Numbered from the stretch's first letter, positions 20,213 to 30,400 are shown. The stretch: DNA of 64,000 nt from an uncultured Alphaproteobacteria bacterium (GCA_963830775.1 CAWHNT010000038.1:98333-162332); one strand, 5' to 3'. Notes: generated by a model from the letters alone, not told the origin. Program-made: numbers and translations.

Positions 20213-21620
20213 CTAGGCCGTCAGCTGGATCGGCTCGGCAGGCCCCGTGGCTGCGACCTTCGAGACCGTGTAGAGGTACTTTCCCGATGCCGTGGCTGGG
20301 ATGTCGTCGACCTGGTCGAACCGCACCTTGCAAGTTGGGCCCATGAGATCGACCAGCTTGGCCCGAACATGTTGTTGATGCTCCTGCAGTGCGGTGGTGC
20401 CGACGGCCTCGCCAGCCACGAACCGAACCACGACAAGGTCGTGCGACTCCTGGACGAGCTGGACCCGACGTATCACCGCAGTGTCGATCAGGTTGCCCAG
20501 CGTCGTGATCAGGAAGATCGGCGAGACCACCGCCCCGTCGCGCCGCACGAAGGACTCCATGCTGCGGCCGCTCACCTCCTCAAGCAATGGGGGGTTGCGG
20601 CCGCATGGGCACTGGCTCGGTGCCGAGCCGCCCACGGTCGCCCATTTGGTAGCGAATGAACGGCATGGCGTAGTTGTGGAGCGAGGTGATGACCAGATCG
20701 CCGTCCCGGCCCACGACCGGGCGCCCGCGTGCGTCCACGACCTCCACGAGGTGGGAGTTGATCGAGATGTGCATGCCGGAGGTGGCCGGGCACTCGCAGG
20801 CGACATCGCCCATCTCGCGCGAGCCGTAGAAGTTGATGACCGGCGCGCGGAAGGCCCGCGCGATCGCCTCGCGCATCGGCGGCAGGAGCGTGCCGCCGCC
20901 AATGACCACCGCCACCGGCTTGTGCATCTCCCGGCCGGTCCGATTGACGTACTGGGCCACCGTGTAGAGGCCGTCGATGTAGCCCCAGACCAGCTTCGGC
21001 CGGAATCGGTCGACCTCATCGACGATGGCCCTGAGTTCGGGCTCGCCCAGGGTGCCGCAGGGCACGATGCGGCGATTGTAGAGACTGTTCTCGGCATTGC
21101 GCCTGAGCGTGCCGGTCTCGATCACGATGTCTCGGTCGGAGCCCCAGATCTTGAGCTCGGGCTCGCCCGGGTGCTTCCCCAGCACCTCGAAGTGGTAGAG
21201 CTTGGTGGCGACGTTGATGTCCCAGTAATGGCTGTCCTGCCAGTAGTGGATCGGCTGACCGGTCGAGCCGCCGGTGCGGTTAGCATAGGCGCGGCGAGCG
21301 GGCGGCAGCGTGTGGTCCCGGAGCCTTTCCCCCTCGGTGCGAATGATCTCCTTGGTCAGGATCGGCACGGACTGGAGCTGGCCCAGATCCACCCTGTGGT
21401 TCCGGACCACGCCACAGTCGCCCAGCACCTCGCGGTAGTAGGCGGTGTTGTGGAAGGCGTGCCGCAAAAGGCTTTCCAGACGCTCCTCCTGCACCCTCGT
21501 GAGCTCGGCTTGCGATGCGCGATCGAGGGAGCGGAGAAGGGCCAGCTCGCGCGCTGTGGTCGGCCTGCGGGCGCGGAGGGCAAGCGCCAGCAGCGGTCGA
21601 CGCCAGTTGAGCGATGGCAT
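20213..21620 (-). pseudogene. CapK / phenylacetate-CoA ligase-like adenylate-forming enzyme, one frameshift as sequenced
   Basis: ATG 21620 preceded by GGAGG. The N-terminal 340 aa has TGGSTGQPIHYW and YGSREMGDVACE. The C-terminal 130 aa, in the next frame, has CPCGRNPPLLEEVSGR and IPATASGKYLY. The junction near 20612 is consistent with one extra base. Confidence 0.7.
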
Positions 21621-21891
21621 TGGCCCTCCTGCTGAATGGGCTGACTGATGGACGCGACGGTACGGCCCCAGGAGCTCGGGCACCCGACACAAACGTGAAG
21701 GTGTCCCATTCGATCCATCAAATCCAGGCGTTTGGGATCGATTCCGGGATTCCGGCCAGGCGCCGTTGCAACGGGTCTGCAGGCTTCTTCTGAATTCAGG
21801 AGCAAGGCAGCGTCAACCCGTATGAGTTCGCCCACTGGCCGAAGAGCTGAAGCCGGCAGCGGTTTGCTTCTCCAGGTGGCCGGAGCCTGGA

Positions 21892-22917
21892 TCACCGAGC
21901 CGGCGACGACCGCCTGTCCAGCGCCCACAGCACGCCGCCGAACGCCGCGACCAGGGTGATGACGATACGCCGCAGCAGCGCCGCTGCGAGTGCCACCTCG
22001 TGATCGAGGCCCGCATGCCCGTAAAGGACGACGAAGGCGCCCTCGCTCAAGCCGATACCGTTCACCGAGAGTGGGAGAGCGCTGATCATCATGATCAGCG
22101 GGGTCACGAGGAGTGCCGTAAGAAGGTCGACGTTCCCGCCGACCGCGCGGATCACAAAGTACTGGAACAGTGCCAGAAGGCAGTTGAAGAGCAGCGAGAG
22201 CCCGCATGTGACAGCGAGGGCCCACGTCTTGCTTCGGTAGGAGGAGAGCGCGGCCAGGAAGGCTGTGCTCGTCTTCCGGATGGCGCCTGCCGCCGCCGGC
22301 AGCGGCAGGCGTGCGACGAGGGCGCGAGCCTTCCAGGCCAGCAGGGCTAGAGCGCCCAGGGCGAGCAGGCCGGCGATGCCGGTGGCCCCCGAAAGCCGGC
22401 CGTCAGCCAGGAGACCCGGGGCCGCCACCGCCGAGGCGATCCCAAGCGCGACGACCGTGGCCAGCCCGGTCGCCCGCTCGACGACCATGCTGGCGGCGAC
22501 GGGCCCCGTCCCGCCTACGTGTCGGGCAAGGGCAAGGCGGACCACGTCGCCCCCGACGTTGGATGGCAAGAGGCTGCTGAAGAACGCGCCGATCCAATAG
22601 AAGCGCAGCGCCACGAGGAAGGGCACGCGGGGGGCGATCACGGCCAGCAGCGCCTGCCAGCGCCAGGCCGAGAGCGCCAGGCCCGCAAGGTTGACCAGGA
22701 CGGCCAGGGCGGTCCAACCGAGCGCAAGATTCGACAGATGTTCTAGCGCCTTCCGCCAGTCCAGGAGGAGGAGCAGCGCCGCCACGAGCCCCAGCGAGAG
22801 GCCGATCTTGGCGATCCAGAGAACTCTTGACACCGATTCCCCAAGCGGGCCGCGCCGGCGGCGGTACCTGAAGCCATCTCGTGCGGGCCTGCCCGGAGTG
22901 CCAGCCGCCGCCCGCAC
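21892..22917 (-). CDS. Flippase-like / lysylphosphatidylglycerol-synthase TM-domain (UPF0104) membrane protein
   Basis: About 8 TM helices with the family motif [24 protein letters not shown]. The start is uncertain; ATG 22917 and a downstream GTG are both possible. Confidence 0.7.
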
Positions 22918-23064
22918 ACGAGGAGCCGAACAAAGTGGCCGGCCGGCACGCGGCCAGCCACCCCGGTGCCGTGCGGCCGCCGGTACCCTGCCGTGCCGTA
23001 GCCGAACACGGCCGTCCGGCCAAGCGGCTACTTGAAGCGCCCAGGATCCAACGCCCGTGCAGTC

Positions 23065-24548
23065 TCAGCCGATCCCGCCCAGGCTCACATACTTGACCTC
23101 GAGATACTCCTCGATCCCGTACTTCGAGCCCTCGCGGCCCATGCCGCTCTCCTTCACCCCGCCAAAGGGCGCCACCTCGACCGAGATCACCCCGTCGTTC
23201 ACGCCGACCAGGCCCACCTCCAGGGCCTCGGCCACGCGGAACACGCGGGCGAGGTCGCGGGCGTAGAAGTAGCCGGCAAGGCCGACATCGCTGTCGTTGG
23301 CGAGGCGGATCGCCTCCTCCTCGGTCTCGAAGCGGAAGAGCGGGGCCACGGGGCCGAAGGTCTCCTCGTGCGCGAGCTTCATCGTGGCGTCGCAGGGGGC
23401 CAGCACGGTGGGCTCGTAGAAGAGGCCGCCCTTGCGCGTGGCGCTTGCCGCCGGTGACGACCTTGGCGCCCTTCGCGAGCGCGTCCTTGACGTGCTCCTC
23501 GACCTTGTCGACGGCGGCCTGATCGATCAGCGGGCCGACCGTGGTGCCGGCGTCGAGCCCGGCGCCCACCTTCAGCTTGCCGACGGCGGCCGAATACTTC
23601 TGCGCGAAAGCGTCGAAGACACCCGCCTGGACATAGATCCGGTTGGTGCAGACGCAGGTCTGGCCCGCGTTCCTGAACTTGCAGGCGATCGCCCCCTCCA
23701 CCGCCTTGTCGATGTCGGCATCGTCGAAGACGATGAACGGCGCGTGGCCGCCCAGCTCCATGCTGACCCGCTTGACCGTGTCGGCACACTGCTTGAGCAG
23801 GATCTTGCCCACGGCAGTCGAGCCCGTGAACGAGACCTTGCGCACGGTCTTGTTGGTGCAGAGCTCGGTGCCGATCGTCCCCGCACTGCCGGTGACGACG
23901 TTGAGCACACCCTTGGGCAGGCCGGCGCGCTCGGCGAGCTCGGCCATCGCCAGCGCCGAGAACGGCGTGGCGCTCGCGGGCTTGACCACCATGGTGCAGC
24001 CGGCCGCCAGCGCCGGTGCCGCCTTCCTGGTGATCATGGCGATCGGGAAGTTCCAGGGCGTGATCGCGGCGCACACGCCCACGGGCTGCTTCAGCACCAG
24101 GATCCGGCGCGAGCCCACGGTCTGCGGGATGACATCGCCATAGACCCGCTTGGCTTCCTCCGCGAACCACTCGATGAACGAGGCGCCATAGGCCACCTCG
24201 CCCTTCGAACTCGGCCAGCGGCTTGCCCTGCTCGCGCGTCATCAGGATCGCCAAGTCATCCTGTGCGTCCATGATCAGCTCGAACCAGCGGCGCAGGACG
24301 GCGGCCCGCTCCTTGGCCGTCTTGGCCCGCCAGGCCGGCAGCGCCGCCTCGGCCGCGGCGATCGCACGCCGCACCTCCTCCACACCCAGGCTCGGCACGG
24401 TGCCCACCGTCTCGCCCGTGGCCGGATCGGTCACCGTGATCGTCTTCTTGCTGTCCGCGTCGATCCAGCTCCCGCCGACATAGCACTGCTGCCGCAGCAG
24501 CCGCGGGTCGTCGAGCTGGACACGCATGGACTTGAGCGCGATGGCCAT
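23065..24548 (-). pseudogene. gabD: NAD(P)-dependent succinate-semialdehyde dehydrogenase, two frameshifts as sequenced
   Basis: Three frames join into a full aldehyde dehydrogenase with GKPLAE[S][37 protein letters not shown], the catalytic Cys region NAGQTCVC and EETFGP. A doubled T at 24208-24209 and a GGG run at 23429-23431 each add one base. Confidence 0.85.
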
Positions 24549-24737
24549 GATCCGAGGACTCCCCCATGCAGAAAAGGGCCGCTGCCGCGGCCGCCGGCTT
24601 GGGGCAGAGGATGGGGACACGGGCGCGTGCCCGCAAGGTGGCTGCCACCGCGAGCAGGGTCCGGCGACGTGGCATCTCGGCCATAGTCCCCCTGGGCATC
24701 GTGGTTTACGCTCGTGCAAACGAGGGATGCCCCCGCC

Positions 24738-27700
24738 ATGCCAGCTCGTCGTTGGCTCGCCGTCATGCTGCTAGCGGCGCTGCCGGTCGGTGCTGAGGCC
24801 CAGGAGCGGTGCGAGACCGTGGCCGGGCGGGTCGTCGCCCTCGAGGACGTGGTCGAGGTGGCGCGCGGTGCCGGCGGATGGCGGGCGCTGGCCGAAGGCG
24901 ACACGGTCTGTGCCGGCGAGGTGCTCCGCGCCGGGGATGCCGGCCAGGGTGCGGTCCTCCTCGAGAGCGGCACGGTGCTCCGCCTCAACCGCGGCACTAC
25001 GCTTCGTATCGAGCCTTCCGCCGGCGACGGCCGCACGGTGCTCAATCTCCTCTCCGGCCTGATCAGCCTCTTCAACCGCCGGCCGCACGCGCTGGAGGTC
25101 GACACCGCCTTCGCCAACGCCGCCGTCGAGGGCACCGAGTTCACGGTCGAGGCCACGGCCGACCGCTCGCACGTCGTGGTGCTGGAGGGCCGCGTGCGGG
25201 TGAGCAACCCGCAAGGTGAGGTGCAGCTCGCGGCGGGGCAGGCGGCCGTGGCCGTGCAGGGCCGGGCACCCGAGCTCGAGATCGCCGTCCGCCCTCGCGA
25301 CGCGGTCCGCTGGGCACTCTACTACCCGCCGATCGGCACGCAGGAGCTGGCGGCGGATGCGCCGGCCGGTCTCCAGGAGGCCGCACGTCTCGCCGGCACC
25401 GGCGAGCGCGCGGCGGCGCTCACAGCCCTGGAGCAGGTCCCCACCCCGGCGCGGGACGGAAGCTGGCAGGCACTGCGGGCCGAGCTGCTGCTGGGCCTCG
25501 GCCGTCCGCAGGAGGCCGACCAGGCCCTGGCCGCAGCCGCGGACGACCCCGACGCGCTGGCGCTGCGTGCCGTGATGGCGGTGGCGCGGAACGAGAAGGA
25601 GCCGGCCCTGGCGGCAGCCCGCCGGGCAGTGGAGCTGGCCCCGCGCAACGCCCGCGCGCACCTCGCCCTCTCCTACGCGGCGCAGGCCTCGTTCGACATC
25701 CCGCTCGCACGGCAGGCGCTCGAGGCCGCGGTCCAGGCGAGCCCGAACGAGGCGCTGGTCTGGGCGCGGCTGGCCGAGGTGGAGCTGATGCAGGGCGATG
25801 TCCGCGCTGCCAAGCGGGCCGCCGAGCGGGCCACCGCACTCGACCCGGCCAACGCCCGCGCCCAGTCCGTGGCCGGCTACGTGGCCCTGGCCCGCCTCGA
25901 CACCCGGACCGCCAGGGCGGCTTTCGCCCGCGCGATCGACCGGGACCCGTTCGCCGCCCTCCCCCGCCTGGGCCAGGGCCTGGCCACGATCCGCGACGGC
26001 GACCTCGCGGCAGGGCGCCAGATGCTCGAGCTCGCCGTGGCCCTCGACCCCAGCGATCCGCTCCTGCGGAGCTATCTCGGCAAGGCCTATTTCGAGGAAG
26101 GCAGCTACCGCATCGCGTCGGACGAGCTTGCCACCGCCAAGGAGCTCGACCCCAACGACCCCACCCCCTGGCTCTACGACGCGATCACCAAGCAGCTCAC
26201 CAACCGCCCGATCGAGGGCCTGCGCGACCTGGAGAAGGCGACCGAGCTCAACGACAACCGCGCCGTCTACCGCTCGCGGCTCCTGCTCGACCAGGACCGC
26301 GGCACGCGCAGCGTCGGGCTCGGCCGCGTCTACCAGGACCTCGGCTTCGAGCAGCTCGGCATCAACGAGGCCAGCCGCTCGCTCCTGCTCGACAACGCCA
26401 ATGCCGGGGCGCACCGGTTCCTGGCCGACCTCTATTCGCAGCAGCCGCGCTCGGAGCTCGCCTATTTCAGCGAGCGCCTGCAGACCCTGCTCCTGCAGCC
26501 GCCCTCGCGCACGCCGGTCTCGCCCCGCCTCGCCCTCTCCGACCTCAGCGAGATCGCCCGCCCCGGCTTCGGGGCCGGCAGCTTCAACGAGTTCAGCTCG
26601 CTCTTCGACCGCAACGGCATCGCCTTCAACGGCAATGGCCGGGTCGGCAGCAACGAGACCCGCAACGGCGAGGCCATCGTCTCGGCCCTGGCCGACAACG
26701 TGGCGCTCAGCGCCGGCGTGCTGAAGTCCGAGAACGACGGCTTCCGCGACAATGACGAGCTCCGGCTCGAGGTCGCCGACGTGTTCGGGCAGGTGGCCCT
26801 CAGCCCCGAGCTCAGCCTCCAGGCCGAGTACCGCTCCCGCGAGCTGGACCGCGGCTCGCTCGCGTTCGACCTCGATCCGGACCGCCGCGACGAGACGGAG
26901 AAGGCGAACGTCAACCAGGAGGCGGCCCGGGTCGGCCTGCACTACGCCCCGGCGCCCGGGCACGACCTGCTCGTCTCCGCGGCCTACGGCGACCGCAACA
27001 CCGAGGACAGCTTCGAGATCCCGTTCATCGTCCCGATCGAGATCGAGACGCCGACGGACGAGCAGGGCCGGCAGCTCGAGGTCCAGCATCGCTGGCAGAT
27101 GCCGGGCCTCGGCATCATCGCCGGTGTCGGCGACTACGACTTCGATCTCGAGCAGTCGGACGTCCCGGACGACTACCGGCAGCGCTTCGGCTATGTCAGG
27201 ACCAACCTCCAGCTGCTGCCGAGCCTGACCGCGATCTTCGGCGTCGGCATCGACGACTACCGCGACACCCAGCTCGACATCGACAAGACCGAGATCGACC
27301 CGCTGGCGGGGCTGGTGTTCCAGCCTCTGGACGACCTGACGCTGCGTGCGGGCTACTCGGAGCAGCGCAAGCAGCGTCTGGTGGCGAACGAGTCCATCGT
27401 GCCGACCGAGATCGCCGGCCTGAACCGGCTCTTCGACGACCCGAACGGCACCCGGTCCCGCCTCTACGGCCTGGGCCTCGACGCCCGCCTGCACCGCGAC
27501 GCTGCCGGCCGCGTCGACCTCTATGGCGGGCTCGAGGTCAGGCGGCGGAACCTCGACCGGCCGTACCAGGAAACGGACCTCTCGACCGGCGAGCAGTACA
27601 CGGCGGTCGACGACATGCGCGAGGACCGCGTGGCGGGCTACCTCTATGCACTCCCCTCCAAGCGGATCGCCGTCGGCAGCGAGCCCAGCTTCGAGACCAC

Positions 27701-28049
27701 CCGTTGCGAGAACTCCTGCGATCCTGTCCGGGACCTCGATACCTGGGTGCTGCCGTTCGACATCCGCTACTTCGACCCTTCGGGTTTCCTTGCGGCCGCC
27801 CAGTATAGCCGGGTGCAACAGGAGGTTGAGCGCCCGGGCGGGGCCGAGGACAGCGAGTCGTTCGGCGTCGTCAATGTCGGGGCCGGCTGGCGCTTCCCGC
27901 GGCAGGCCGGCGCCGTTCTACTGGAAGTACGCAATCTGCTGAGCGAGAACTTCGACTATCAAGACGACCGCTTCAGGGCTACTGACCCCCTTCAATCCCC
28001 TTACGTGCCCGAGCGGCAGTTTTTCGTTTCATTGCAGCTGAGTTTTTGA
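24738..28049 (+). CDS. Large outer-membrane protein: signal peptide, FecR domain, TPR array and C-terminal beta-barrel
   Basis: ATG 24738 preceded by GAGGGA; signal peptide MPARRWLAVMLLAALPVGAEA. FecR-like block (GTVLRLNRGTTLRI...VDTAFANAAVEGTEFTV...VVVLEGRVRV). Roughly 400 aa of TPR-like Ala/Leu repeats follow. The last 450 aa or so have alternating beta-strand patterns and end in ...FFVSLQLSF, a C-terminal Phe as in OM barrels. Confidence 0.7.
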   Translation: MPARRWLAVMLLAALPVGAEAQERCETVAGRVVALEDVVEVARGAGGWRALAEGDTVCAGEVLRAGDAGQGAVLLESGTVLRLNRGTTLRIEPSAGDGRTVLNLLSGLISLFNRRPHALEVDTAFANAAVEGTEFTVEATADRSHVVVLEGRVRVSNPQGEVQLAAGQAAVAVQGRAPELEIAVRPRDAVRWALYYPPIGTQELAADAPAGLQEAARLAGTGERAAALTALEQVPTPARDGSWQALRAELLLGLGRPQEADQALAAAADDPDALALRAVMAVARNEKEPALAAARRAVELAPRNARAHLALSYAAQASFDIPLARQALEAAVQASPNEALVWARLAEVELMQGDVRAAKRAAERATALDPANARAQSVAGYVALARLDTRTARAAFARAIDRDPFAALPRLGQGLATIRDGDLAAGRQMLELAVALDPSDPLLRSYLGKAYFEEGSYRIASDELATAKELDPNDPTPWLYDAITKQLTNRPIEGLRDLEKATELNDNRAVYRSRLLLDQDRGTRSVGLGRVYQDLGFEQLGINEASRSLLLDNANAGAHRFLADLYSQQPRSELAYFSERLQTLLLQPPSRTPVSPRLALSDLSEIARPGFGAGSFNEFSSLFDRNGIAFNGNGRVGSNETRNGEAIVSALADNVALSAGVLKSENDGFRDNDELRLEVADVFGQVALSPELSLQAEYRSRELDRGSLAFDLDPDRRDETEKANVNQEAARVGLHYAPAPGHDLLVSAAYGDRNTEDSFEIPFIVPIEIETPTDEQGRQLEVQHRWQMPGLGIIAGVGDYDFDLEQSDVPDDYRQRFGYVRTNLQLLPSLTAIFGVGIDDYRDTQLDIDKTEIDPLAGLVFQPLDDLTLRAGYSEQRKQRLVANESIVPTEIAGLNRLFDDPNGTRSRLYGLGLDARLHRDAAGRVDLYGGLEVRRRNLDRPYQETDLSTGEQYTAVDDMREDRVAGYLYALPSKRIAVGSEPSFETTRCENSCDPVRDLDTWVLPFDIRYFDPSGFLAAAQYSRVQQEVERPGGAEDSESFGVVNVGAGWRFPRQAGAVLLEVRNLLSENFDYQDDRFRATDPLQSPYVPERQFFVSLQLSF

Positions 28050-28085
28050 TACCGGAATAGGATGAGTGGGAAAGGGAGAAACAAC

Positions 28086-28478
28086 ATGCGTCGTGAATTG
28101 CAGCCGGCTGGCCACCTGCATCGCTGGTTCATGCTCGCGCTTGTGCTCGGTGCAGTCATCGCCGTAGGCGGCACCGCCAATGCTCAGCAGGCCGATACCG
28201 GGAAGAAAGCAGCCAAGGAAGAGCTGCTGCCGGAGAGATTGAAGTTCAAGATCGATCTGATCGAGAAGGATGTCGGGAGCAGCAAGACTGTCGATGTGAA
28301 GATCAAGGACAAAGATGGCAATGAGGCTCAGACCACCGCAGATGTGGCCGAGATCGCAAGAGACAAGATCTACGATACTGTAACACTCGTCATCACAAGG
28401 TACGAGGGATCCAACTGCACGAGGGTTTGCAAGGTATTGTCCAACGGCACAACAAGCTGCTACAAGATCTGCAATTGA
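28086..28478 (+). CDS. Small secreted Lys/Asp/Glu-rich protein with C-terminal twin CX3C motif
   Basis: ATG 28086 preceded by GGGAGA; Sec signal peptide ending ...GGTANA. The mature part is about 97 aa and ends NCTRVCKVLSNGTTSCYKICN (C-x3-C-x9-C-x3-C). GC content is visibly lower, with A/T-ending codons. No family was recognised. Confidence 0.55.
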   Translation: MRRELQPAGHLHRWFMLALVLGAVIAVGGTANAQQADTGKKAAKEELLPERLKFKIDLIEKDVGSSKTVDVKIKDKDGNEAQTTADVAEIARDKIYDTVTLVITRYEGSNCTRVCKVLSNGTTSCYKICN

Positions 28479-28503
28479 CCGCAGACGAGGATCGCGGGGC
28501 GTA

Positions 28504-29436
28504 GTGAGCGCAATCTTGGCTGAGTCGCCGGCGGACGGCCGCGGCGCGGTTCGGCCAGGCTTTCGGCACTGGGCAGGTCGCAGCCGCACGCTGCCGATTC
28601 TGACCGTCCTCGTGGTCCTGGCCCTCCTCTGGTACGCGGGCGCCGTCTGGCTGAACGCGCCGCAGCTCATCGACCGCTACGGCCGCGCCAAGACGCCCTG
28701 GACCACCGGCCAGCTCGTGCAGGATGCCTGGGCCATGGACCGGCCGGTGCTGCCCGCACCGCATCAGGTGCTGGTCGAGCTGCGCAAGACAGTGCTGGAG
28801 GTGGCCCCCAGCTCCAGGCGCTCGCTCCTCTACCACGGCTGGGTCACGCTCTCCTCGGCCATGCTGGGCTTCGTGCTGGGGACCGCCCTCGGCTGCGTGC
28901 TGGCGCTGGGCATCGTGCAGGTGCCCACGCTCGACCGCTCGCTGATGCCCTGGATCATCGCCTCGCAGACGATCCCGATCCTGGCCATCGCGCCCATGAT
29001 CGTCGTCGTCCTGGGCTCGCTCGGGCTCACCGGCCTCGTCCCCAAGGCCCTGATCTCCACCTACTTGTGCTTCTTCCCGGTGGCGATCGGGATGGTGAAG
29101 GGCCTGCGCTCGCCCGAGCCCCTGCAGCTCGACCTCATGCGCACCTACAGCGCCAGCGAGGGCCAGGTGGTGCGCCTTCTCCGCCTGCCGGCCTCGCTGC
29201 CGTTCCTGTTCGCGAGCCTGAAGGTGGGCGTTGCCATCAGCGTCGTGGGTGCGATCGTGGGCGAGCTGCCGACCGGCGCCCAGGCCGGCCTGGGTGCGCG
29301 GCTGCTGACCGGCTCCTACTACGGCCAGACGGTGCAGATCTGGGCCGCCCTGGTGGCGGCCTCGCTGCTCTCGGGCGTGCTCGTGGCCCTGGTCGGCCTC
29401 GCCCAGCGGCTCGCCTTGCGGCACGCCCCGCCGTGA
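28504..29436 (+). CDS. ABC transporter permease (NitT/TauT-like family)
   Basis: GTG start, 310 aa, 6-7 TM helices and an EAA-type loop (DLMRTYSASEGQVVRLLRLPASLPFLF). Confidence 0.8.
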   Translation: MSAILAESPADGRGAVRPGFRHWAGRSRTLPILTVLVVLALLWYAGAVWLNAPQLIDRYGRAKTPWTTGQLVQDAWAMDRPVLPAPHQVLVELRKTVLEVAPSSRRSLLYHGWVTLSSAMLGFVLGTALGCVLALGIVQVPTLDRSLMPWIIASQTIPILAIAPMIVVVLGSLGLTGLVPKALISTYLCFFPVAIGMVKGLRSPEPLQLDLMRTYSASEGQVVRLLRLPASLPFLFASLKVGVAISVVGAIVGELPTGAQAGLGARLLTGSYYGQTVQIWAALVAASLLSGVLVALVGLAQRLALRHAPP

Positions 29437-30359
29437 GCCGGAACGCCGTCGAAGGCCTGCTGCTCGCGGTGCTGGTTGCCGTCGGCTGCCTCATCGTCCT
29501 CAGGATGGTCCATGCGGGCGAGGCGCCGCTCTGGCTCTGGGCGCTGGTGGCAGTCCTCGCACTCCTCGCGTGGGAAGCGATGGCGCGCCTCGCCCGCCAT
29601 CCGCGCGCCGCCATGCTGGTGCCGGTGCTGTTCGGCGCCTGGCTGCTCTTCCTGTGGGAGGCCGTCGTCATCGGCTTCGGGGTGCCTCGGGTGCTTCTCC
29701 CCGCCCCCTCGGCGATCGGCGAGACGCTGGCCCGCAGCACCGTCATGCTCGCCGCCGACTTCCGCCAGACCTTCCTGCGCGCCGTGCTGCCCGGCTGGGC
29801 CATGGGCTGCGGGGCCGGGCTGCTCACGGCCCTCCTCGTCGACCGGGTGCCGTTCCTGCAGCGCGGCCTCCTGCCGATCGGCAACCTGATCTCGGCCCTG
29901 CCGGTGGTCGGCATCGCGCCCATCATGGTGATGTGGTTCGGCTTCGACTGGCAGTCGAAGGCGGCCGTGGTCGTGGTGATGACCTTCTTCCCGATGCTGG
30001 TGAACGCCGTGGCCGGGCTCGGGGCTTCCGGCCGGATGGAGCGCGACCTGATGCGCTCCTATGCGGCGAGCTACCCGCAGACGCTGCTGATGCTGCGCCT
30101 GCCCGCGGCCCTGCCCTTCGTCTTCAACGCGCTCAAGATCAACAGCACGCTGGCGCTGATCGGCGCCATCGTCGCCGAGTTCTTCGGCACGCCGATCGTC
30201 GGCATGGGGTTCCGGATCTCGACCGAGGTCGGCAAGATGAACCTCGACCTCGTCTGGGCCACGATCGCCGTGGCTGCCCTCACCGGCTCCCTCTTCTACG
30301 GTACCCTGGCGCTCGCCGAGCGCGCGCTCACCTTCTGGCACCCCTCCTTTCGCCGCTGA
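29433..30359 (+). CDS. ABC transporter permease (NitT/TauT-like family), second subunit
   Basis: GTG 29433 overlaps the upstream stop (GTGA). EAA-type loop DLMRSYAASYPQTLLMLRLPAALPFVF. It is a paralogue of the preceding permease. Confidence 0.8.
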   Translation: MSRNAVEGLLLAVLVAVGCLIVLRMVHAGEAPLWLWALVAVLALLAWEAMARLARHPRAAMLVPVLFGAWLLFLWEAVVIGFGVPRVLLPAPSAIGETLARSTVMLAADFRQTFLRAVLPGWAMGCGAGLLTALLVDRVPFLQRGLLPIGNLISALPVVGIAPIMVMWFGFDWQSKAAVVVVMTFFPMLVNAVAGLGASGRMERDLMRSYAASYPQTLLMLRLPAALPFVFNALKINSTLALIGAIVAEFFGTPIVGMGFRISTEVGKMNLDLVWATIAVAALTGSLFYGTLALAERALTFWHPSFRR

Positions 30360-30400
30360 ACCTGCTATCAAGGCCGGGGCTGGAGCCAAGGAGGCAAGAG

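Follow-up and report, generated by a model that had tools for sequence, protein, structure and literature searches.

Among described proteins, the closest counterpart of the one considered here is NsrA of Sinorhizobium meliloti, a protein of 1200 amino acids (aa) in which Pfam recognises a FecR domain (aa 66–160) together with tetratricopeptide repeats (TPRs), and whose gene, nsrA, lies directly upstream of cyaK, which codes for a protein composed of a CHASE2 and a Guanylate_cyc domain. The primary paper on NsrA is reportedly that of Garnerone et al. 2018 (J Bacteriol 200:e00019-18). NsrA has been described as an outer-membrane-associated receptor that is needed to perceive the nodule signals 1 and 1′ and that acts upstream of CyaK and CyaD1/D2, which are CHASE2-type adenylate cyclases needing it for signal-dependent cAMP production (PMC7529298, PMC13001267, PMC10463352); signal 1′, in particular, needs NsrA and is transduced via CyaD1/D2 and not via the adjacent CyaK (PMC7529298). 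The ribosomal protein uL2 is a candidate for signal 1, and the acidic external loops of the NsrA barrel have been proposed as its docking site (PMC7529298, PMC13001267, PMC10463352). FecR-domain proteins accompany CHASE2 sensors in other bacteria as well, being clustered with a CHASE2 cyclase in Campylobacterota (PMC9239204) and encoded, as a LysM-FecR protein, with a CHASE2 histidine kinase in the 'BiofilmReg' operon of Burkholderia and as PA4035/4036 of P. aeruginosa (PMC5192318). Here we analyse a gene found at positions 24738–28049 of a 64,000-nucleotide stretch of DNA from an uncultured Alphaproteobacteria bacterium (GCA_963830775.1 CAWHNT010000038.1:98333-162332; the whole stretch is hereafter called the window), whose product combines a FecR-type domain, a TPR solenoid and a C-terminal barrel, and compare it with these systems.

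Homology with NsrA

In a tblastn search against plasmid records, the N-terminal 180 residues of the window protein matched one and the same pSymB site in many S. meliloti strains, with 38.6% identity, and one of these records annotates the site as nsrA, 'signal perception protein'. When compared with NsrA by BLASTP, the window protein was aligned in two collinear segments, one covering the FecR/TPR part (aa 8–473; 31% identity, E 1e-28) and the other the barrel (aa 719–1076; 24% identity, E 2e-6). The profile of the family, based on a 31-sequence alignment (A1), was matched to NsrA by hhalign with a probability of 99.9% (E 1.1e-35) along 989 columns (A1 37–1108, NsrA 26–1184). Judged from these alignments, the window protein is homologous to NsrA over its full length, with the same FecR-TPR-barrel order. 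A broader homolog search over 5.8 billion proteins returned 1,239 matches, the best 120 of which score above 730 bits; most of these 120 have a length of 1,080–1,180 aa and show the same set of Pfam blocks (FecR, TPR and TonB-barrel).

The original prediction, a reading of the DNA made without database searches, had set the protein apart on the ground that none of the TPR-barrel exporters and Slam proteins was known to carry a FecR domain. As an argument for novelty this does not hold, since NsrA has the same FecR-TPR-barrel layout: the architecture is already described, and the window protein is a new, divergent member of the NsrA family without a nearby CHASE2 gene.

CHASE2 sensors next to the members of the family

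A CHASE2-cyclase gene stands immediately upstream of the homolog on two long contigs that encode proteins 43% identical to the window protein. Gene order was surveyed at 80 loci from GTDB species representatives, all open reading frames (ORFs) of which were searched with CyaK and a syntenic cyclase. The taxa sampled include Rhodospirillales, Gammaproteobacteria, Nitrosomonas, Nitrosospira, Desulfobacterales, Rokubacteria, Brocadia, Binatia and Dadabacteria, the nearest relatives of the window protein being found in metagenome-assembled genomes (MAGs) of Alphaproteobacteria/Rhodospirillales. A CHASE2 gene was present within the flanks at 65 of the 71 informative loci from other species, most often directly upstream and on the same strand (49 loci, with a median gap of ~136 bp), otherwise downstream (7 loci), divergent (6 loci) or upstream behind a tandem paralog (3 loci). 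No CHASE2 gene was seen at six loci despite an upstream flank of at least 2.5 kb, and at nine more the upstream flank is too short to judge. All-against-all clustering of the flanking ORFs of 82 loci gave the CHASE2 family as the sole conserved neighbour, apart from antisense shadow ORFs.

In the window itself, the ORFs scanned near the gene include no sigma factor of the extracytoplasmic function (ECF) or sigma-70 family, no anti-sigma factor and no glycosyltransferase, and no polysaccharide synthase, secretion or cargo gene adjoins it. The original prediction was therefore right in noting that neither a glycosyltransferase nor a sigma/anti-sigma partner is adjacent, but it had looked for the wrong partner, since the conserved one in this family is a CHASE2 sensor.

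Most of the CHASE2 partners are cyclases, a class III nucleotide cyclase being the usual output domain. Different outputs were observed at four loci. In two deltaproteobacterial MAGs the CHASE2 genes lying just downstream of the FecR-TPR-barrel genes code for a SpoIIE/PP2C output (L060 4893–7187 and L069 14295–16496, E about 1e-49), and at two further loci (L085 7936–9849 and L087 3870–5849) the gene directly upstream of the FecR-TPR-barrel gene codes for a CHASE2 protein that begins with a TIR_2 domain (E 1e-28) and has no cyclase domain. The FecR-TPR-barrel proteins of the latter two loci count among those most closely related to the window protein. The L085 region is rich in mobile elements. 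The literature searched yielded no account of an outer-membrane receptor that is paired with a TIR-CHASE2 sensor. As the output domain varies while CHASE2 stays, the conserved link is to CHASE2, which suggests that the FecR-TPR-barrel proteins address the CHASE2 domain in the periplasm.

The ratio of receptor to sensor genes is not fixed either. Two full-length FecR-TPR-barrel paralogs stand beside one CHASE2 cyclase at no fewer than eight loci (L007, L021, L040, L049, L061, L074, L081 and L082), which suggests that one sensor can be served by several receptors; at L003 and L037 the second paralog is frameshifted. These pairs of paralogs occur mostly in Nitrosomonas and its relatives.

Domain organization and structure model

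The gene is a single stop-free ORF on the plus strand, of 1103 codons coding for 1103 aa, with a GC content at third codon positions (GC3) of 0.91 and a codon-position GC pattern typical of real genes, in a sequence of ~70% GC. Its features are collected in Table 1. An AlphaFold2 model calculated from the 31-sequence alignment has a mean predicted local distance difference test score (pLDDT) of 79 and a predicted template modelling score (pTM) of 0.77.

Table 1. Features of the FecR-TPR-barrel gene, its product and its flanks, with window positions.
Feature	Residues	Window position	Strand	Basis and remarks
Divergent intergenic region, 188 bp		24550..24737	.	Between the starts of the aldehyde dehydrogenase gene and of the FecR-TPR-barrel gene
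GAGGGA, Shine-Dalgarno-like		24722-24727	+	Sequence reading; ~10 nt before the ATG
Signal peptide	1-21	24738..24800	+	MPARRWLAVMLLAALPVGAEA, then QE; predicted cleavage after AEA
FecR-type beta domain	25-181	24810..25280	+	Pfam PF04773 and all-beta model
Conserved connector	182-209	25281..25364	+	Family motif VRPRDAVxWALYYPP
TPR-like solenoid	210-586	25365..26495	+	Pfam TPR families and model helices
Pre-barrel linker	587-626	26496..26615	+	Conservation; low-confidence in model
C-terminal barrel, no plug	627-1103	26616..28046	+	Pfam PF00593, model strands (DSSP), Foldseek
Loop between strands 13 and 14	878-905	27369..27452	+	PT(E/Q)(I/V)AG(L/F)N..FDD.NG
Stop codon		28047..28049	+	Translation

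As read from the translation, the N-terminus (MPARRW-LAVMLLAALPVG-AEA, followed by QE) is a Sec-type signal peptide with no lipobox; no segment of the family is less conserved, and the model shows it as a low-confidence helix at aa 6–14. The Pfam FecR family (PF04773) matches aa 63–154 with an E of 7.7e-15 and 55.6 bits, against a cut-off of 24, and in the model the region is all-beta (aa 28–181, pLDDT ~80); its comparison with PDB gave a weak match to chain 4m0n, a putative anti-sigma factor (E 0.096). Within the family Cys25 (24810–24812) is near-invariant and Cys58 (24909–24911) invariant, and from the sequence a periplasmic disulfide between the two appears possible. The connector that follows has four residues that are invariant in the 31-sequence alignment, P186, D188, W192 and P197.

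The solenoid is modelled as 22 helices, corresponding to ~11 TPR-like pairs, and several Pfam TPR families match it between about aa 260 and 510. When the family profile was searched against PDB sequences, strong matches to TPR proteins were obtained and only these, with nothing significant for the barrel or the FecR part. The solenoid would be located in the periplasm. Few stretches of the family are as conserved as the linker between solenoid and barrel (mean share of the commonest residue 0.74; 15 of 40 columns at least 90% conserved), and despite this its pLDDT falls below 50 at aa 591–621. As it sits where TonB-dependent transporters have their plug, one may speculate that it is a mini-plug closing the barrel, or else a tether coupling the barrel to the TPR part.

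The barrel is modelled with 22 long beta strands at aa 627–1102, mostly with pLDDT 85–95. The Pfam family TonB_dep_Rec_b-barrel (PF00593) matches aa 722–875 (E 4.4e-11; 43.8 bits against a cut-off of 27), and all of the 50 matches listed by Foldseek against PDB are 22-stranded TonB-dependent transporters, over 500–630 aligned columns. FptA ranks first (E 2.3e-16) and is followed by FpvA, FhuE, Cir, BtuB and FecA, the E values from FptA to BtuB ranging from 1e-16 to 1e-12, with 500–570 columns aligned. With Pfam at E ≤ 1, the protein shows no match to Plug (PF07715), DUF560/Slam or BCSC_C. As modelled, the barrel is of the TonB-dependent-transporter type, with 22 predicted strands and without a plug. 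The protein ends in ...LQLSF, and the terminal residue is F, W or Y in 28 of the 31 aligned family members.

Assuming that the barrel begins on the periplasmic side, its turns there are short (2–5 aa). The loops predicted to point outward have an acidic composition, with 27 D/E and 11 K/R; most of them are short, but three, at aa 706–721, 878–905 and 1066–1093, are long and conserved. The second of these is the most conserved element of the barrel (mean conservation 0.78; 12 of 28 columns at least 90% conserved) and may fold into the lumen. Taken as a whole, the barrel is less conserved than the periplasmic part: the median pairwise identity in the family is 0.55 for the periplasmic part and 0.40 for the barrel, and the corresponding medians of the window protein are 0.49 and 0.33. 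A periplasmic part more conserved than the barrel is what would be expected of a fixed partner contact combined with a variable surface specificity, and the observed pattern fits.

The succession of signal peptide, FecR-type domain, TPR scaffold and C-terminal barrel with terminal Phe that had been proposed from the sequence is consistently recovered by Pfam, the model and the translation. The FecR block does belong to its family by score, structure prediction does return a barrel, here with 22 predicted strands and TonB-dependent transporters as matches, and the plug reported as missing is absent from the Pfam results. On the contrary, the suggested analogy with PgaA, BcsC, PelB and Slam/type XI proteins found no barrel match, the barrel being instead of the TonB-dependent-transporter type.

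Intactness of the gene and comparison with a second strain

A second strain is represented by L001, a metagenome contig from ENA that is 97.7% identical to the window. Between window 20213–37775 and L001 5479–23072 there are 61 indels in 17.6 kb, mostly of 1 bp and most of them bases absent from the window, a pattern of single-base indels that is typical of long-read assembly errors; the ORF calls of the window need care. Only one indel falls inside the FecR-TPR-barrel gene, at window position 27395 within the loop 878–905, where it disrupts the L001 copy (1023 aa plus a fragment); across this position the reading frame of the window agrees with the family consensus. The two copies differ by 33 synonymous and 9 non-synonymous changes, and the resulting ratio of non-synonymous to synonymous polymorphism (pN/pS) of 0.096 indicates that the gene is maintained by purifying selection. 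All columns that are invariant in the 31-sequence alignment are present in the window protein, which holds by construction, the protein being itself a member of the alignment.

That a frameshift had artificially fused two separate genes, a possibility raised in the original prediction, is ruled out: the architecture recurs in the 120 best homologs, and the sole indel breaks the gene of L001 and not that of the window.

Several other genes of the window seem frameshifted as a consequence of such indels, among them those of an ABC permease with an NMT1-type binding protein (29067–31406) and of an alpha-amylase (50213–52037). The aldehyde dehydrogenase gene (23065–24549, minus strand) is split over three frames, covering Aldedh positions 1–87, 92–341 and 355–461; as the indels of its L001 counterpart are found at different positions, assembly errors are likelier than a shared pseudogene.

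Flanking signals and surrounding genes

The promoter is presumed to lie in the divergent intergenic region, which is bounded by the ATG of the aldehyde dehydrogenase gene (24549–24547, minus strand). A scan for the sigma-70 consensus between 24100 and 28600 gave no match, Rfam no RNA element in the window, and no convincing terminator was found around the gene. Its neighbours are the divergent aldehyde dehydrogenase gene, a gene for an LPG-synthase-like membrane protein, transposase fragments and genes of nitrate/sulfonate-type ABC transporters; farther away are genes for MutS, for an EAL protein and for metabolic functions.

The region 16837–20213 of the window (~3.4 kb) corresponds to just ~0.5 kb in L001 and contains two transposase-like ORFs, one at 18042–19475 (HTH_38 and rve integrase core) and the other at 19651–20166 (HTH_23/HTH_29). 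It looks like a strain-specific insertion-sequence insertion, 5–7 kb upstream of the FecR-TPR-barrel gene. L001 has in turn, at 5328–5415, a second copy of 88 bp that are identical to window 23065–23152, the 3′ end of the aldehyde dehydrogenase gene. This extra copy adjoins the site of the transposase insertion of the window and could stem from a small duplication or from the scar of a rearrangement.

Two further ORFs were noted downstream. One, at 31519–32055 (plus strand), lies between two sets of ABC-transporter genes and codes for a C-terminal BrnA antitoxin domain (E 1.5e-16). The other, at 38177–39790 (plus strand), codes for a protein of 537 aa with an EAL (cyclic di-GMP phosphodiesterase) domain, the N-terminal ~280 aa of which have no Pfam match; it is 10 kb downstream of the FecR-TPR-barrel gene and has no evident link to it.

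Discussion

Our favoured reading, to which we give a probability of roughly 0.6, is that the window gene codes for an outer-membrane signal receptor of the NsrA family serving an unlinked CHASE2 sensor. The barrel would be inserted in the outer membrane, where its acidic surface loops and/or its lumen would meet an external cue, and the TPR solenoid together with the FecR-type domain would span the periplasm up to the CHASE2 domain of an inner-membrane sensor. By contacting CHASE2, the FecR-type domain and/or the TPR part would switch the cytoplasmic output of that sensor, usually a class III nucleotide cyclase and, in some lineages, a PP2C phosphatase or a TIR domain. Such an arrangement would be akin to FecA-FecR signalling, except that the FecR-type module is part of the outer-membrane protein and not of the inner-membrane one. 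The CHASE2 partner would be encoded elsewhere in the genome, like CyaD1/CyaD2 relative to nsrA; since NsrA also serves these unlinked cyclases, a partner encoded elsewhere is the simplest expectation for the window protein, and the two-paralog loci (at least eight), together with the NsrA-CyaD1/D2 case, are precedents for a loose receptor-to-sensor ratio and for partners that are not linked. Since the host, an uncultured bacterium of high GC content, is not a rhizobium, neither a plant signal nor uL2 can be assumed as the cue.

Several observations weigh against this reading. No CHASE2 or class III cyclase gene is present in the 64-kb window, as judged from tblastn with seven queries at E ≤ 1e-3 or E ≤ 1 and from hidden Markov models (HMMs) of the family, built from ~70 syntenic partners; the queries with CHASE2 were CyaK, the cyclases of L003 and L086 and the TIR-CHASE2 protein of L085, the others being two cyclase-only proteins and one neighbour ORF. 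The gene arrangement of L001 is the same, likewise without an adjacent CHASE2 gene. The window gene is in the minority of ~8% that lacks a nearby CHASE2 gene, adjacency being typical and not obligatory. The identity with NsrA is just 24–31%, and no report of a physical contact between a FecR-type domain and CHASE2 was found in the literature searched. Finally, the location in the outer membrane, the ligand and the state of the pore are predictions, and a plugless 22-stranded barrel would need something to close it.

The lack of a CHASE2 gene in the window and in L001, along with the six of 71 informative loci that also have none within their flanks, would be accounted for as well by a change of partner, the periplasmic arm of this NsrA-family member contacting some other periplasmic or inner-membrane protein, or having a structural role in the envelope, with no CHASE2 signalling. 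The somewhat divergent barrel, whose median identity of 0.33 compares with 0.40 for pairs with comparable N-terminal identity, would be in line with it. We nevertheless hold such a change to be unlikely, because the FecR and TPR parts, through which the partner would be contacted, are the best conserved ones, being 61–63% identical to those of the CHASE2-adjacent relatives P0002, P0031 and P0099, because the invariant alignment columns are kept, though by construction as said above, and because CyaD1/D2 are a precedent for unlinked partners.

Less likely still is an outer-membrane channel or exporter, that is to say a plugless, 22-stranded, TonB-independent pore with the TPR part as scaffold for a secreted or imported substrate. 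The succession of TPR and C-terminal barrel is indeed shared with BcsC, PgaA, PelB and Slam, the barrel is wide, with 22 strands and no plug detected, and no signalling partner is found nearby in the window. However, neither BCSC_C nor DUF560 nor the PgaA barrel matches the protein, and among the NCBIfam models, none of which is specific to it, those of BcsC (NF008520; 28.6 against a cut-off of 858 bits), PgaA (TIGR03939; 16.4 against 367) and PrsT match on the TPR part only and far below their cut-offs. The structural matches are TonB-dependent transporters, with no exporter barrels among them; no synthase, glycosyltransferase or secretion gene is adjacent, the sole conserved neighbour of the homologs being a CHASE2 sensor; and the characterised homolog, NsrA, has a signalling phenotype.

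Transposase fragments 5–7 kb upstream that are absent from L001, many neighbour genes that look frameshifted and the frameshifted L001 copy might also speak for a decaying remnant whose adjacent CHASE2 gene was lost, insertion sequences and frameshifts having upset the region. This is very improbable for a window ORF that is intact over 1103 codons, aligns with the family end to end and evolves with the low pN/pS given above; moreover, the single-base frameshifts of one assembly are not those of the other, which fits sequencing or assembly indels better than shared pseudogenisation. A classical FecR-type anti-sigma component of cell-surface signalling, working with an ECF sigma factor and a TonB-dependent transducer, is hardly credible despite the Pfam FecR domain and a barrel of the TonB-dependent-receptor superfamily, as the protein has a cleavable signal peptide in place of a cytoplasmic anti-sigma domain and membrane anchor, scores 12.8 bits against a cut-off of 385 with the NCBIfam FecR equivalog NF007296, has no detected Plug or STN signalling domain and has no ECF sigma gene either among the window ORFs scanned or as a conserved neighbour of its homologs.

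Returning to the receptor of a CHASE2 sensor as the preferred reading, a wider proposal can be made, which we put forward tentatively and at somewhat less than even odds: FecR-TPR-plugless-barrel proteins would serve CHASE2 sensors in general as their input module in the outer membrane, whatever the output of the sensor, in a many-to-many network of receptors and sensors. No description of such a general module was found in the literature searched. If the proposal is true, it would amount to a widespread system for signalling across the envelope, in which the build of the FecA/FecR pair is inverted; copies without a CHASE2 neighbour, such as the one in the window, would show a receptor-sensor network instead of fixed pairs, and the TIR-CHASE2 partners would tie an outer-membrane receptor to TIR-type (NAD-consuming) signalling.

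What CHASE2 domains sense is a question that has stood since the definition of the domain, and the synteny survey bears on it. Because the link with CHASE2 is conserved while the output domain of the partner varies, the survey supports the view that CHASE2 domains read an outer-membrane partner instead of a small molecule, and it names specific gene pairs with a candidate FecR-TPR/CHASE2 contact. This output-independent coupling to CHASE2, that of the TIR-CHASE2 proteins included, is a more interesting outcome than the window copy itself. The NsrA family consists of one genetically characterised prototype and more than 1,000 uncharacterised relatives, spread over Alpha-, Beta- and Gammaproteobacteria, Desulfobacterota, Rokubacteria, Brocadia and other groups. 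To our knowledge it is understudied, with no solved structure and with a tentative ligand proposed for one member only.

Comparison with known systems

Like the exporters BcsC, PgaA and PelB and the Slam/DUF560 proteins, the window protein has a periplasmic TPR part followed by a C-terminal outer-membrane barrel, but the Slam/DUF560 barrel is 14-stranded, against 22 predicted strands in our model. It differs from TonB-dependent transporters in that 600 aa of FecR and TPR precede the barrel instead of a plug, and in that the extracellular loops are mostly short. As in the FecA/FecR/FecI system, a signal would pass from the outer membrane across the periplasm by means of a periplasmic domain of FecR type and of a 22-stranded barrel belonging to the TonB-dependent-receptor superfamily; in the window protein, however, both modules are fused, there is neither plug, STN, anti-sigma domain nor ECF sigma factor, and the partner would be a CHASE2 sensor.

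Genetic coupling of a FecR-domain envelope protein to a CHASE2 sensor is common to the Burkholderia LysM-FecR/CHASE2 type and to the Campylobacterota cluster. In the former, however, the FecR domain is joined to LysM and not to a TPR-barrel (PMC5192318), and in the latter the outer-membrane protein with FecR and the protein with TPRs are described as having a gene each (PMC9239204). The closest likeness is with NsrA. NsrA is ~100 aa longer, and gene order differs: nsrA precedes cyaK, most homologs of the window protein are encoded after the CHASE2 gene, and next to the window gene there is no CHASE2 gene at all. Signal peptide, FecR domain, TPR part and barrel follow one another in the same order in the two proteins, with collinear homology and acidic surface loops (PMC7529298), and nsrA adjoins a CHASE2 cyclase gene, as do most of the closer homologs of the window protein.

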